Shown here in pieces: positions 1,251-10,111 of a DNA stretch of 10,292 bases. The notes beneath the pieces are model-generated. The model saw only the letters and a program-made list of their open reading frames with translations. It did not search any database and was not told the origin of the DNA. The stretch's first letter is position 1; each line of letters begins with the position of its first letter. A program made the position numbers and the translations under genes. The stretch covers positions 1-10,292 of IMG/VR virus record IMGVR_UViG_2681813316_000013. One strand, written 5' to 3'. The DNA is from a virus (taxonomy: Duplodnaviria; Heunggongvirae; Uroviricota; Caudoviricetes).

Positions 1251-1862
1251 GACTTAACTCTCTTAAAAGTTGCTAAACATCGCTCGCAAACAAGAAAGAA
1301 AAGTTCTGTTGCGAGCACTCCACAATTTAAACGCCACACAAGCAGCTATTAGGTGGACGGTTCCAAGATTGCTATCAACTGCCACCCGAATACCGTCAAA
1401 ACTTGACGTCCAACCAAGAATTATTGAGTTGTAAACTCAACGCAATGATCTGGTTGGTATAAATGTGACATATGTCATGAATCGACTAGTTGAGATAGTC
1501 AAGATGGGCTTGCTTGACATCATCACCACAACCGGAGCCAACAATGGCAGATTGCGTTACCCAGATTTGATAAAGGCATTTTAGCCTGACATAACTATGC
1601 ACTGTATCGTCGCCGTATTCCCGCATCAACAGAGACCACAGCCCGAGAGGGAGACTCCTCTGCGCGAGTGTGCGGGGATAATCAAAAACGATACACACCG
1701 GGGTTTACCGTGTTAACGGAGCGCGGCGTTGTCCCCTCATGGTCGCTGGTCCGGTGCGATGGTGGAAGAAACCGGACGATGTGTTACCTCGCAAACTCTG
1801 TTATGTCATGTGTCTGATTTGTGATTTAAGTCGGATAATTGTCATTGCCATTAAGCAGAGGA

Positions 1863-1925: not shown

Positions 1926-2252
1926 ATGAAAAGAAATCTTCCGTTAATTATTTTGTTGTCTTCTTTGGTTATGGGCTGTACGCAACATAAAACAGATATG
2001 CCTCGACAGTTGGTTAAGGCATTACCACAATATCCGGCCTATGCCGCGGCAAATTATATAAAGGGACGGGTTGATGTGAAGTTTGATATTGGTGCTGATG
2101 GTACTGTCACCCGAATTGAGTTTATCCGTTCAGAGCCGCACCATCTGTTTGATGAGCAGGTTGTAAAGGCGATGGCAAAATGGCGATTTGAGAAGGACAA
2201 GCCGCGTAAAGGCGTGAAGAAAACATTTATCTTTAGTCCTTCAGCACCCTGA
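1926..2252 (+). CDS. Lipoprotein with TonB C-terminal domain (free TonB-CTD, no TonB N-terminal anchor or Pro-rich spacer)
   Basis: Translation MKRNLPLIILLSSLVMGC/TQHK... has a signal peptide with lipobox-like VMGC and +2 Thr. The mature part ...PQYPAYAAANYIKGRVDVKFDIGADGTVTRIEFIRSEPHHLFDEQVVKAMAKWRFEKDKPRKGVKKTFIFSP matches E. coli TonB C-domain motifs (YPxxA...G.V.VKFD...DG.V...P...F...V..AM..WR.E..KP..G) as I recall them. Alternative start ATG 1911. Confidence 0.8.
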   Translation: MKRNLPLIILLSSLVMGCTQHKTDMPRQLVKALPQYPAYAAANYIKGRVDVKFDIGADGTVTRIEFIRSEPHHLFDEQVVKAMAKWRFEKDKPRKGVKKTFIFSPSAP

Positions 2253-2711
2253 TTATTTTATCAGAAGTTAATTATCACTCTGTTGCTATTCAGTACATCC
2301 CTGCAGGGTAAAGTCTTGTTTCGCCGGATATGAAGATGAAATATTGTTAGAAGACAGTAGCTACCGGTTCCTGTAACCGAACGTTCATTTCTCGTTATTT
2401 TTCATGCTGGCCGGGCGCAGGTGCTTTGCATCTGTTGCCAGCCTTCTCCTGCAGGCTTCAATAACCCATGCCGAAAAATTACCCGATCCCTTACGTTCAA
2501 GGGCAATATGGATTTGATTAATCATCTGGTTTGGGAAGCTTTATTTTTTGATGACATTGTGTTTTTCCGTGTTCAGTGCTGCTGATTTGTATTGTCTTAA
2601 GATGTCTTTACGTTAAGTTGACACAGATCAATTAATGCATGACTTGGACAAAATTGATTATTTGTCGTGGTTTTATGGTGTACGTGGGATGTGTGATGGT
2701 ATTTATATAAA

Positions 2712-2726
2712 TGATAATTATTATCA
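2712..2726. promoter_or_regulatory. Fur-box-like perfect 7-1-7 palindrome TGATAAT-T-ATTATCA
   Basis: TGATAATTATTATCA is a perfect inverted repeat. The enclosing 19-mer ATAAATGATAATTATTATC (2707-2725) matches the classical Fur consensus GATAATGATAATCATTATC at 15/19 positions. It lies 37 bp upstream of cosN in AT-rich DNA; the target gene is unclear. Confidence 0.3.
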
Positions 2727-2762
2727 TTTATTGGGTCCTTTCCGGCGATCCGGCAGGCTACG

Positions 2763-2774
2763 GGGCGGCGACCT
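2763..2774 (+). other. cosN: cosN, cohesive-end nicking site of the phage genome (lambda / phage 21 type 12-nt cohesive end)
   Basis: GGGCGGCGACCT at 2763-2774 followed by CGCGGGTTTTCGCTATTTATGAAAATTTTCCGG, which matches the lambda left end as I recall it. It sits about 195 bp upstream of the small terminase start, the same spacing as lambda cosN to Nu1. Confidence 0.85.
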
Positions 2775-2810
2775 CGCGGGTTTTCGCTATTTATGAAAAT
2801 TTTCCGGGAT

Positions 2811-2915
2811 CCATGTCCGGTTTCTCTTCAAGTTAACTATATGAAAAATATAAAAACAGGTCTTCTGTGAACCGGACATGAACAAAAAACAGACATGTAA
2901 ACCGGACATGACCGG
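2811..2915 (+). repeat. cosB: cosB-like region: three copies of a CCGGACATG element (candidate small-terminase binding sites R3/R2/R1) separated by an AT-rich spacer
   Basis: CATGTCCGG (2812-2820, inverted), AACCGGACATG (2870-2880) and AACCGGACATG (2900-2910, followed by ACCGG), plus a partial GACATG at 2892-2897. The A/T-rich stretch 2821-2860 between first and second copy is where an IHF-type bend site would be expected. All lie between cosN and the small terminase gene. Confidence 0.6.
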
Positions 2916-2957
2916 TTTTGTTGTGATTGTGAGGTGAGAGTTTTTGCGAGGTGAGGA

Positions 2958-3467
2958 GTGGCTACGCAGACTGAAGTTGCCAGGCATTTAAGTCTGACCG
3001 ATCGCCAGCTTCGCAGATTGCAGAAATTGCCGGGTGCCCCGATATCGAATAAGCGAGGGCAACTGGATCTGGATGCCTGGCGCGATTTTTACATATCGTA
3101 TCTGAGGAGAAGTAAAAACGATGTGCCTGATGGCGATAGCGAAGACGACTATGAGGAGAAATTGCTTATTGCCAGATGGGAACTGACAGCAGAACAGGCT
3201 GTTACACAGCAGTTAAAAAATGAGGTGTCAAAAGGAAAACTTATTGACACCGGGTTCTGTATTTTTGCCCTCAGTAAGCTGGCAATGGCGTTATCCAGTA
3301 CGCTTGATTCCATCCCTTTATCCATGCAGCGACAGTTTTCTGATTTAACACCGCGCCATCTTGACCATCTGAAAACCCTTATTGCTAAGGGGGCAAATCA
3401 GTGTGCGCGGGCAGGGGATAAATTACCGGATTTACTCGATGAATATATCAGAGCAACAACTGAATAA
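2958..3467 (+). CDS. nu1: Terminase small subunit (Nu1 family)
   Basis: GTG start at 2958, with GAGG at 2948-2951 six nt upstream. Translation aligns with lambda Nu1, especially the C-terminal two-thirds (…TGFCIFALSKLA…LDSIPLSMQRQFSDL…HLDHLK…LPDLLDEYI…). The N-terminal DNA-binding region is diverged. Stop TAA 3465-3467 overlaps the large terminase start. Confidence 0.9.
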   Translation: MATQTEVARHLSLTDRQLRRLQKLPGAPISNKRGQLDLDAWRDFYISYLRRSKNDVPDGDSEDDYEEKLLIARWELTAEQAVTQQLKNEVSKGKLIDTGFCIFALSKLAMALSSTLDSIPLSMQRQFSDLTPRHLDHLKTLIAKGANQCARAGDKLPDLLDEYIRATTE

Positions 3468-8677: not shown

Positions 8678-9025
8678 ATGGTAACGAAAACCATCACTGA
8701 ACAGCGTGCGGAAGTACGTATTTTTGCCGGTAATGATCCGGCTCATACCGCCACAGGCAGCAGCGGGATTTCCTCGGCAACACCGGCACTGACGCCCCTG
8801 ATGCTGGATGAAGCTACCGGGAAACTGGTGGTCTGGGACGGACAGAAAGCCGGTAGTGCGGTTGGCATACTGGTACTGCCGCTTGAAGGCACAGAGACGG
8901 TACTGACGTATTACAAGTCGGGGACCTTTGCGACGGAGGCAATCCGCTGGCCTGACAGTGTGGATGAACACAAAAAGGCAAATGCCTTTGCCGGCAGTGC
9001 CCTGAGTCACGCGGCGCTGCCGTAA
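8678..9025 (+). CDS. D: Head decoration protein (gpD family)
   Basis: AGGAGG at 8663-8668, then ATG 8678. 115 aa with NDPAHTAT, TPLMLD...KLV.WDG...G.AVGIL, YKSGTF, AFAG.A.S shared with lambda gpD. Confidence 0.9.
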   Translation: MVTKTITEQRAEVRIFAGNDPAHTATGSSGISSATPALTPLMLDEATGKLVVWDGQKAGSAVGILVLPLEGTETVLTYYKSGTFATEAIRWPDSVDEHKKANAFAGSALSHAALP

Positions 9026-9082
9026 CACGTTATCAGGCCACCGCGGTGGCCTGACTGATTTCTGAATGAAAGGAACTGATTT

Positions 9083-10111
9083 ATGGGATTGTTTACGACC
9101 CGCCAGTTACTCGGTTATACCGAACAAAAAGTGAAATTTCGTGCGCTGTTTCTGGAGCTGTTTTTCCGCCGTACGGTGAATTTCCATACCGAAGAGGTGA
9201 TGCTGGACAAAATTACCGGAAAAACGCCGGTGGCGGCCTATGTCTCCCCGGTTGTTGAAGGAAAAGTGCTGCGTCATCGCGGTGGTGAAACCCGCGTGTT
9301 ACGTCCGGGCTACGTCAAGCCGAAACACGAATTTAATTACCAGCAGGCGGTTGAGCGTCTTCCCGGTGAAGATCCGGCTCAGCTGAACGACCCGGCCTAC
9401 CGTCGTCTGCGTATCATCACCGATAACCTCAAACAGGAAGAGCATGCCATTGTCCAGGTGGAAGAAATGCAGGCGGTGAATGCCGTGCTGTATGGCAAAT
9501 ACACCATGGAAGGGGATCAGTTTGATACTGTCGAGGTGGATTTTGGACGCTCTGAAGGAAATAACATTGAGCAGGCCGACGGTAAAAAATGGTCTGAGCA
9601 GGACCGTGATACGTTTGATCCGACGCATGATATTGACCTCTACTGCGATCAGGCCAGCGGTCTTGTGAATATTGCCATTATGGACGGTACTGTCTGGCGT
9701 CTGCTGAATGGTTTTAAGCTGTTCCGCGAAAAACTGGATACCCGTCGCGGCTCAAATTCACAACTCGAAACGGCAGTGAAAGACCTGGGAGCGGTGGTGT
9801 CTTTCAAAGGGTATTACGGTGATCTGGCCATTGTGGTGGCGAAAACGTCTTATGTGGCAGACGACGGTACCGAAAAACGTTATCTGCCGGTGGGCACACT
9901 GGTCCTGGGGAATACGGCAGCAGAGGGCATTCGTTGCTATGGTGCCATTCAGGATGCGCAGGCGTTGTCCGAAGGTGTGGTGGCCTCTTCCCGTTATCCG
10001 AAACACTGGCTGACTGTGGGCGATCCGGCCCGTGAATTCACCATGACGCAGTCCGCACCGCTGATGGTGCTGCCGGATCCGGATGAGTTTGTGGTGGTGC
10101 AGGTGAAATAA
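9083..10111 (+). CDS. E: Major capsid protein (gpE family, HK97 fold)
   Basis: AAAGGA upstream of ATG 9083. 342 aa colinear with lambda gpE: FTTEKV.L..I, YVSP.V.G.V.R.RGG, PGYVKPKHE, DPAYRR.RII..N...EE.AI.QVEEMQAV.AVL.GKYTM.G, KLDTRRGSNS.LETAVKDLG, YPK.W.T.GDPAREFTM.QSAPLM.L.DPDEFV.VQ. Confidence 0.95.
   Translation: MGLFTTRQLLGYTEQKVKFRALFLELFFRRTVNFHTEEVMLDKITGKTPVAAYVSPVVEGKVLRHRGGETRVLRPGYVKPKHEFNYQQAVERLPGEDPAQLNDPAYRRLRIITDNLKQEEHAIVQVEEMQAVNAVLYGKYTMEGDQFDTVEVDFGRSEGNNIEQADGKKWSEQDRDTFDPTHDIDLYCDQASGLVNIAIMDGTVWRLLNGFKLFREKLDTRRGSNSQLETAVKDLGAVVSFKGYYGDLAIVVAKTSYVADDGTEKRYLPVGTLVLGNTAAEGIRCYGAIQDAQALSEGVVASSRYPKHWLTVGDPAREFTMTQSAPLMVLPDPDEFVVVQVK

Follow-up and report, generated by a model that had tools for sequence, protein, structure and literature searches.

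A Fur-box palindrome beside cosQ in a lambda-type phage corresponds to the known nohA and nohB Fur sites of Escherichia coli K-12

The window, by which we mean the whole stretch of viral DNA analyzed here (10,292 nucleotides of IMG/VR record IMGVR_UViG_2681813316_000013, from a member of the Caudoviricetes), contains a lambda-type cos site with an AT-rich palindrome directly on its left. The features that matter for what follows are these:

2385-2525, minus strand: gene of the DUF3950 (YlcI/YnfO) family, the left neighbor of the palindrome
2707-2731, no strand: perfect 12-1-12 palindrome, ATAAATGATAAT-T-ATTATCATTTAT, the whole Fur-box element
2712-2726, no strand: core Fur 7-1-7 box, TGATAATTATTATCA, matching the motif TGATAATNATTATCA at 14/14 positions
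2733-2739, plus strand: cosQ, GGGTCCT, the packaging-termination signal, 6 bp to the right of the Fur core
2763-2774, plus strand: cosN cohesive-end sequence, GGGCGGCGACCT (12 nt), 23 bp to the right of cosQ
2775-2807, plus strand: conserved segment right of cosN, CGCGGGTTTTCGCTATTTATGAAAATTTTCCGG, the I2 region of lambda cos
2812-2911, plus strand: cosB, three R-like AACCGGACATG repeats around an AT-rich segment
2958-3467, plus strand: gene for the terminase small subunit, Phage_Nu1 family

The arrangement is that of a lambda-type cos site, with cosQ followed 23 bp later by GGGCGGCGACCT, repeated sites for the small terminase subunit, and then Nu1-type and gpA-type terminase genes after cosB. 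It matches the layout in lambda, Qin and DLP12, and the cosQ heptamer and its spacing are the same as at lambda 48473-48479. The role of cosQ as a packaging-termination signal is described in PMC4669245, where the conservation of I2 is also mentioned. Lambda-type homology stops at 2807. Beyond that point, the cosB repeats (2812-2823, inverted; 2866-2881 and 2896-2911, direct) are of a type that is unlike lambda's and common to PhiR12 phages. The terminase gene starts 239 bp to the right of the palindrome's center, with cosQ, cosN and cosB lying in between.

The sequence at 2700-2745 reads tatttatataaatgataattattatcatttattgggtcctttccgg, and a longer read around the palindrome and cos is tatttatataaatgataattattatcatttattGGGTCCTttccggcgatccggcaggctacgGGGCGGCGACCTcgcgggttttcgctatttatgaaaattttccgg. 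A preliminary description of this DNA had recorded a perfect 7-1-7 inverted repeat of the Fur type 37 bp upstream of cosN. Both the repeat (14/14) and the distance (2763 minus 2726) are confirmed, but the symmetry is larger than was described: arms of 12 nt at 2707-2718 and 2720-2731 are 100% complementary around a 1-nt spacer, which makes 2707-2731 the longest palindrome of the whole window. The reported 15/19 agreement with the E. coli Fur box holds as well. It is reached by the 19-mer at 2707-2725 on the plus strand, compared with the consensus GATAATGATAATCATTATC, and likewise by the 19-mer at 2713-2731 on the minus strand, and the element therefore comprises two overlapping 19-bp Fur sites offset by 6 bp. 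It qualifies as a Fur box both by the 19-bp consensus and by the 7-1-7 motif. Among 300 first-order Markov simulations of the window, a perfect 7-1-7 box appeared in none (0/300), a Fur match of at least 15/19 in 0.3% and a palindrome arm of at least 12 nt in 0.7%. The Fur-box palindrome in the window is real and not a product of chance. Elsewhere, a perfect GC-rich palindrome of 22 bp, TCAGGCCACCGCGGTGGCCTGA, lies at 9033-9054 between a decoration-protein-like open reading frame (8678-9025) and the major capsid open reading frame (9083-10111), and may form an RNA stem-loop inside the late operon.

To the left of the palindrome, the comparison with phage PhiR12_1 is instructive. There, a block homologous to window positions 1600-1773 (93% identical) runs straight into the palindrome (locus L482, 1190-1205), and homology to the window resumes at 2709. 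The ∼935 bp at 1775-2708 of the window, carrying the TonB-family and DUF3950 genes, are therefore an insertion directly left of the box relative to PhiR12_1. The palindrome is the left edge of a conserved palindrome-cosQ-cosN block, and it is right at this edge that mosaic junctions and inserted morons, this island among them, are found.

The island itself has several features of note. Shortly before the ribosome-binding site of the TonB family lipoprotein gene (1926-2252, plus strand; Pfam TonB_C, 2.7e-15; RefSeq WP_000828067.1) stands another perfect palindrome, of the 8-1-8 type (AGAATAAGACTTATTCT, 1889-1905), which matches the Fur 7-1-7 motif at only 8/14 positions. It is a matter of speculation that a periplasmic TonB C-terminal domain could hinder TonB-dependent receptors, for example in superinfection exclusion. 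The DUF3950 open reading frame (window 2385-2585) is only 46 aa long and starts MINQ, compared with 64-79 aa in lambda, YnfO and other relatives; a disrupted reading frame upstream of 2525 has cost it the basic N-terminal arm (MSTKNRTRRTTTRNIRFPN). The highly conserved intergenic stretch that separates the start of DUF3950 from the Fur box contains the inverted repeat ATCAATT (2628-2634)/AATTGAT (2652-2658), which has equivalents in lambda, Qin and DLP12 and may be an operator of the ribbon-helix-helix-like DUF3950 protein. We also considered the Fur-like box as the operator of this adjacent protein and rejected that as a general explanation: in a first analysis of 33 clusters, the DUF3950 gene stands beside the box in 5 of 22 box-bearing contexts and is missing from the other 17. 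Many of the other left neighbors are plus-strand genes that end 60-140 bp from the box.

The preliminary description had suggested checking the conservation of the palindrome in related phages. We collected cos sites by cosQ-N23-cosN patterns alone, without ever specifying the palindrome, and clustered them on the sequence from -330 to -36 relative to cosQ, which gave 67 independent upstream contexts. A Fur-like box (at least 11/14 to the 7-1-7 motif) is found 3-10 bp from cosQ, with a mode of 5-6 bp, in 42 of the 67 (63%); 4 of the others have an intrinsic terminator abutting cosQ and 21 have neither. By comparison, matches of at least 11/14 occur in 0.75% of control 36-nt windows from the same loci and in 1% of composition-matched shuffles. 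Within the first 1.15 Mb of phage loci, all 65 perfect box matches are at cos and 0 are elsewhere. Contexts with the box cover at least eight variants of cosN, among them the cos of N15 itself (CGATAACTATTATCG), and several types of cosB. Taking one representative per context, its profile is T G A T A a T [C/T] A T T A T C [A/G], in which G2, A3, T4 and A5 as well as T11, T13 and C14 are near-invariant and the central base is free, which is the Fur pattern. Conservation extends into the flanks to give a 25-bp palindromic consensus, GCAAATGATAATNATTATCATTTGC, that abuts GGGTCCT.

The palindrome thus travels with cos and not with the flanking genes, as a conserved component that is independent of the adjacent genes, though not universal. 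In all likelihood, it is an accessory and dispensable part of the cos module. That the box is not essential follows from the 25 of 67 contexts that do without it and from a genome-wide knockout screen in which fur is unmentioned among the lambda host factors. When lambda, DLP12 and the window are compared, the entire intergenic region is conserved, so selection on the box alone is not separable in that comparison.

Some further observations were made during the survey. A scan of GTDB genomes with the cos pattern contributed few real contexts; most of its hits were cosmid sequence, lambda contamination, or matches that arise by chance in genomes of high GC content. Exact lambda right-end sequence was found at nine loci in GTDB assemblies of Oceanobacillus, Neobacillus, Shewanella, Leeuwenhoekiella, Raphidiopsis and others. 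The contig is frequently of low coverage, or foreign sequence takes over right after cosN, and these right ends in unrelated taxa are evidently lambda spike-in or vector contamination. Some viral contigs (eight loci) have two inverted cosQ-N23-cosN-like sites 555-770 bp apart, the second with a divergent cohesive end, GGGCGGCGGTTA, and no Fur-like box. Box-less contexts at four loci and their relatives carry unrelated intrinsic terminators whose T-run ends 2 nt before GGGTCCT (…TTTTTTGC directly followed by GGGTCCT), and a T-rich tail is found in that register in contexts with the Fur box, too (…ATCATTTTGC directly followed by GGGTCCT). The T-run and the following RC may be an unrecognized extension of cosQ.

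The same site is present in well-studied genomes. The DLP12 prophage of E. coli K-12 (nohD/nohB) has a 15-mer identical to TGATAATTATTATCA (positions 2095-2109 of locus L002), and Qin and lambda (NC_001416, 48452-48466) carry TGATAATCATTATCA, which differs from it only at the free central base. In all three, the box is 6 bp from GGGTCCT. In the site list of Chen et al. (2007; PMC2189734), nohA is preceded by a Fur site of 22.3 bits at 1634624 and nohB by one of 25.3 bits at 579824, which is the third strongest cluster of K-12. When their coordinates are converted through annotated gene positions (offsets 1976 and 777), these sites coincide with the exact central bases of the Qin and DLP12 palindromes. 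An oligonucleotide from nohA (Qin) was gel-shifted with 150 nM Fur (PMC2189734), and that paper cites previous work in which a Qin fragment, cloned in a multicopy vector, was recovered by selecting in vivo for Fur titration (Vassinova & Kozyrev, 2000).

In vivo occupancy is documented in strain CFT073, where Fur ChIP-seq (Banerjee et al., 2020; PMC7157518, Table S5A) lists a ‘nohA’ peak with its summit at 1424721 and a height of 283 and a ‘nohB’ peak with its summit at 3046729 and a height of 20.55. The latter summit is 3 bp from the center of an identical TGATAATTATTATCA (L481) beside GGGTCCT. The former is 13-27 bp from a 12/14 variant, TGATAATTATTCTCG (L480), which also stands beside GGGTCCT, in a different left context. 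In K-12, a ChIP-seq summit at 1634625, credited by its authors to FNR at a Fur-repressed locus (Myers et al., 2013; PMC3688515), coincides with the Qin palindrome site.

Fur binding is therefore established, in vitro and in vivo, for orthologous and sequence-identical copies of the element, and its identity with them makes it very probable that the window's own copy binds Fur. The possibility of a Fur-type site, raised in the preliminary description, is borne out for orthologous sites by titration in vivo, the gel shift of the Qin nohA site and ChIP-seq in CFT073. The element is already catalogued, being the same as the known nohA and nohB (nohD) Fur sites of K-12. The view that a site of this kind is out of the ordinary among lambdoid phages has to be given up: a box stands at this spot in lambda, Qin, DLP12 and N15, and in ∼60% of the independent contexts of lambda-type cos. 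Since lambda and most relatives have the same site in the same spot, the palindrome of the window is a genuine Fur site and not an unusual one.

We then consider what the box does. Regulation of a promoter is the default role of Fur boxes, and the box could be the classical operator of a weak or conditional promoter whose transcript runs leftward into DUF3950 or rightward across cos into the terminase genes. Fur would repress it, or relieve silencing, and iron limitation would then alter phage gene expression. There are -10-like hexamers inside the box (GATAAT and TATCAT), and the TATATA/TATAAA hexamers pointed out previously do exist at 2704-2711, but they have no -35 partner: the promoter scan found no sigma-70-like promoter on either strand of 2300-3050, no -35/-10 hexamer pair reaches 9/12 on either strand there, and manual inspection of the lambda and consensus versions of the box gave a best promoter match of 8/12. 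A Fur model combined with a sigma-70 model led Chen et al. to select nohA as a ‘potential Fur-controlled promoter’ (PMC2189734), and all contexts with a DUF3950 gene also have the box. Against this stand the 17 box-bearing contexts without that gene, the many contexts in which the left gene is on the plus strand and converges on the box, and the distance of ∼235 bp to the terminase start, which is on the far side of cosQ, cosN and cosB. In CFT073, c1568, c3174 and their neighbors are in the Fur ChIP table and absent from all fur-mutant expression tables (PMC7157518), i.e. the Fur peaks come without fur-dependent expression of the flanking genes. In strain NCM3722, nohA, nohD and nohD2 have log2 fold changes of -3.2 to -3.6 for wild type versus fur deletion (∼10-fold higher in the deletion; PMC10219339, Table S2), which at face value favors transcriptional repression. 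However, the whole lambda-like prophage (ren, ninG, ninI, lysis, Nu1 and head genes) is also ∼10-fold up in this deletion, as is the SOS gene dinB, and no ChIP peak is listed at nohA/nohD in these data (PMC10219339). Because the whole prophage is induced and the three Nu1 genes are near-identical, the nohA/nohD signal is uninformative; it is probably due to cross-mapping among the Nu1 genes. The data suggest instead that loss of Fur raises spontaneous prophage induction in NCM3722. Neither the window scan nor the CFT073 expression tables thus place the box over a promoter with fur- or iron-dependent transcription, and the genes on its left vary in identity and orientation. The earlier proposal of iron-responsive transcription from this palindrome is unsupported, and we regard an operator function of the classical kind as rather unlikely.

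Other readings leave transcription aside. The element could be mainly a packaging or architectural one, read by terminase, another phage protein, IHF or HU, or acting through intrinsic bending, with Fur binding only incidentally. Its strict linkage to cosQ across cosN and cosB variants speaks for this, as do the conservation of the flanks (A)TGCAAA and TTT(G)C beyond the Fur core, up to the 25-bp consensus that abuts GGGTCCT, and the occurrence of the T-run and RC before cosQ in box-less contexts as well. Yet conservation picks out precisely the specified positions of the Fur 7-1-7 motif and leaves its center free, the variants stay within Fur-box space (a GATAATGATAATTACTATC form at L235, and variants with TCTC like those of known Fur sites), and Fur occupies orthologous cos-adjacent sites in vivo. 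An IHF site, which had been offered as an alternative, does not fit either, as no match to the IHF core WATCAANNNNTTR with at most one mismatch lies within 2520-3000, the nearest being at 2507-2519. Occurring with several terminase and cosB specificities, the box is not a specificity element. A cosQ-associated element had indeed been anticipated, and its location and conservation are as expected of one; the assumption that it would exclude Fur binding is wrong. A primary role in packaging or architecture to which Fur binding is incidental appears quite unlikely to us. It is also conceivable that the box is a decoy: replicated phage DNA, at hundreds of copies, would titrate Fur and derepress host iron-uptake genes, possibly including TonB-dependent receptors, and this would support phage DNA synthesis or alter the cell surface. 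A single site in each genome would, however, face the thousands of Fur molecules that a cell contains, and the fixed position beside cosQ would be left unexplained. In favor of titration, the site is among the strongest predicted in the K-12 genome (PMC2189734), and the Qin fragment was, according to its citation there, isolated precisely because a multicopy clone titrates Fur in vivo. We judge a decoy to be very unlikely as the main function. Finally, an AT-rich palindrome might have arisen by chance in an AT-rich region or be a weak RNA hairpin or terminator with no protein partner. A transcript could form an 11-bp A-U-rich stem (-9.2 kcal/mol), but this stem has one G-C pair and no U-run, so that it lacks the G+C-rich hairpin and U-run of an intrinsic terminator, and the terminator scan was negative. 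No Rfam family matched the palindrome region. At symmetric positions of the box, compensatory changes are sporadic (AACCGTT, ATTTAAT) among many uncompensated ones, and base pairing is therefore not what is conserved. With the simulations, the excess at cos over controls and the experiments on the orthologues all opposed to it, this last reading can practically be discarded.

The explanation that we favor, tentatively and with somewhat less than even confidence, is that the palindrome is a genuine high-affinity Fur operator, a dispensable part of cos, that acts on DNA and not on a promoter. The component of this that concerns a DNA-level role untied to a promoter is itself a possibility that we hold with reserve. 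One or two Fur dimers would sit within the final ∼50 bp of the phage chromosome, their footprint should extend to cosQ, and the bound Fur would act on DNA transactions. Most plausibly, the terminase motor would run into it as a roadblock shortly before reaching cosQ, which would favor recognition of the termination signal; genetic work from the Feiss laboratory has reportedly suggested that slower translocation improves cosQ recognition. Equally possible, Fur could stop RNA polymerase that is not antiterminated from entering cos and the terminase genes in the lysogen. In either case, the element would be helpful but dispensable. The genetic definition of cosQ is said to require only the 7-bp segment, and the 25 of 67 contexts without a box fit with this. 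The roadblock beside cosQ is pure inference, and the packaging motor, with its large forces, may strip Fur from the DNA without consequence. Adjacency to cosQ would also be expected of any rightward regulatory element, since cos occupies everything from there to the terminase gene. We consider it unlikely, while worth stating, that Fur is a second host accessory factor of lambda-type cos beside IHF, with Fe-Fur, bound 5-6 bp from cosQ, modulating packaging termination or the fate of the first-injected end. If it were, virion production or infection efficiency would be coupled to the iron status of the cell in lambda, N15 and many relatives.

As a single instance, the site is ordinary, and its interest lies in where it stands. 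A site that ranks among the strongest for Fur in E. coli genomes is a conserved neighbor of cosQ, in lambda as in ∼60% of independent cos contexts, and probably not a promoter element, and in CFT073 it is bound in vivo without detectable transcriptional consequence. In the literature that we searched, we found no paper joining the nohA Fur site or a ‘Fur box’ to cos or packaging, which is no proof that none exists, and Fur is unmentioned in the cos literature consulted, including PMC4669245. The question raised is whether a host metalloregulator takes part in lambda DNA packaging or end protection. Lists of the Fur regulon that count nohA and nohD as iron-regulated may misread a cos element, and prophage induction in the NCM3722 fur deletion confounds calling these genes Fur-repressed.

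The closest known counterparts are the sites of K-12 (nohA in Qin; nohB/nohD in DLP12) and CFT073, which are the same element, the 15-mer being identical in DLP12 and in one CFT073 copy. The window shares with the K-12 noh sites the 6-bp spacing to cosQ and the ∼235 bp to a Nu1-type gene. It differs from them in belonging to an apparently intact prophage, in the specificity type of its cosB and Nu1, and in the TonB-family/DUF3950 island on its left. The IHF sites of lambda cos (I1 in cosB, and I2) offer a parallel, as they too place the site of an abundant host protein inside the packaging region, where it is conserved and helpful without being essential. A role in the assembly of terminase at cosB has been demonstrated for IHF and none for Fur; moreover, the Fur site is to the left of cosQ, on the termination side, and would add a dependence on metal status. 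With classical Fur operators such as fepA-fes, entC, iucA and ryhB, the box has in common the array of GATAAT hexamers, the 7-1-7 arrangement, a comparable predicted strength and sites 6 bp apart. Those operators overlap the -35/-10 elements of a mapped promoter and confer strong fur-dependent expression, whereas the window box has no detectable promoter and the cos-adjacent boxes of CFT073 come with no fur-dependent expression. The Fur-repressed stx1 promoter is located in the late region of Stx1-converting lambdoid phages, where it controls the toxin genes. Its box, while likewise in a lambdoid late region, serves the promoter of a cargo gene, whereas that of the window is tied to cos and to no cargo gene.
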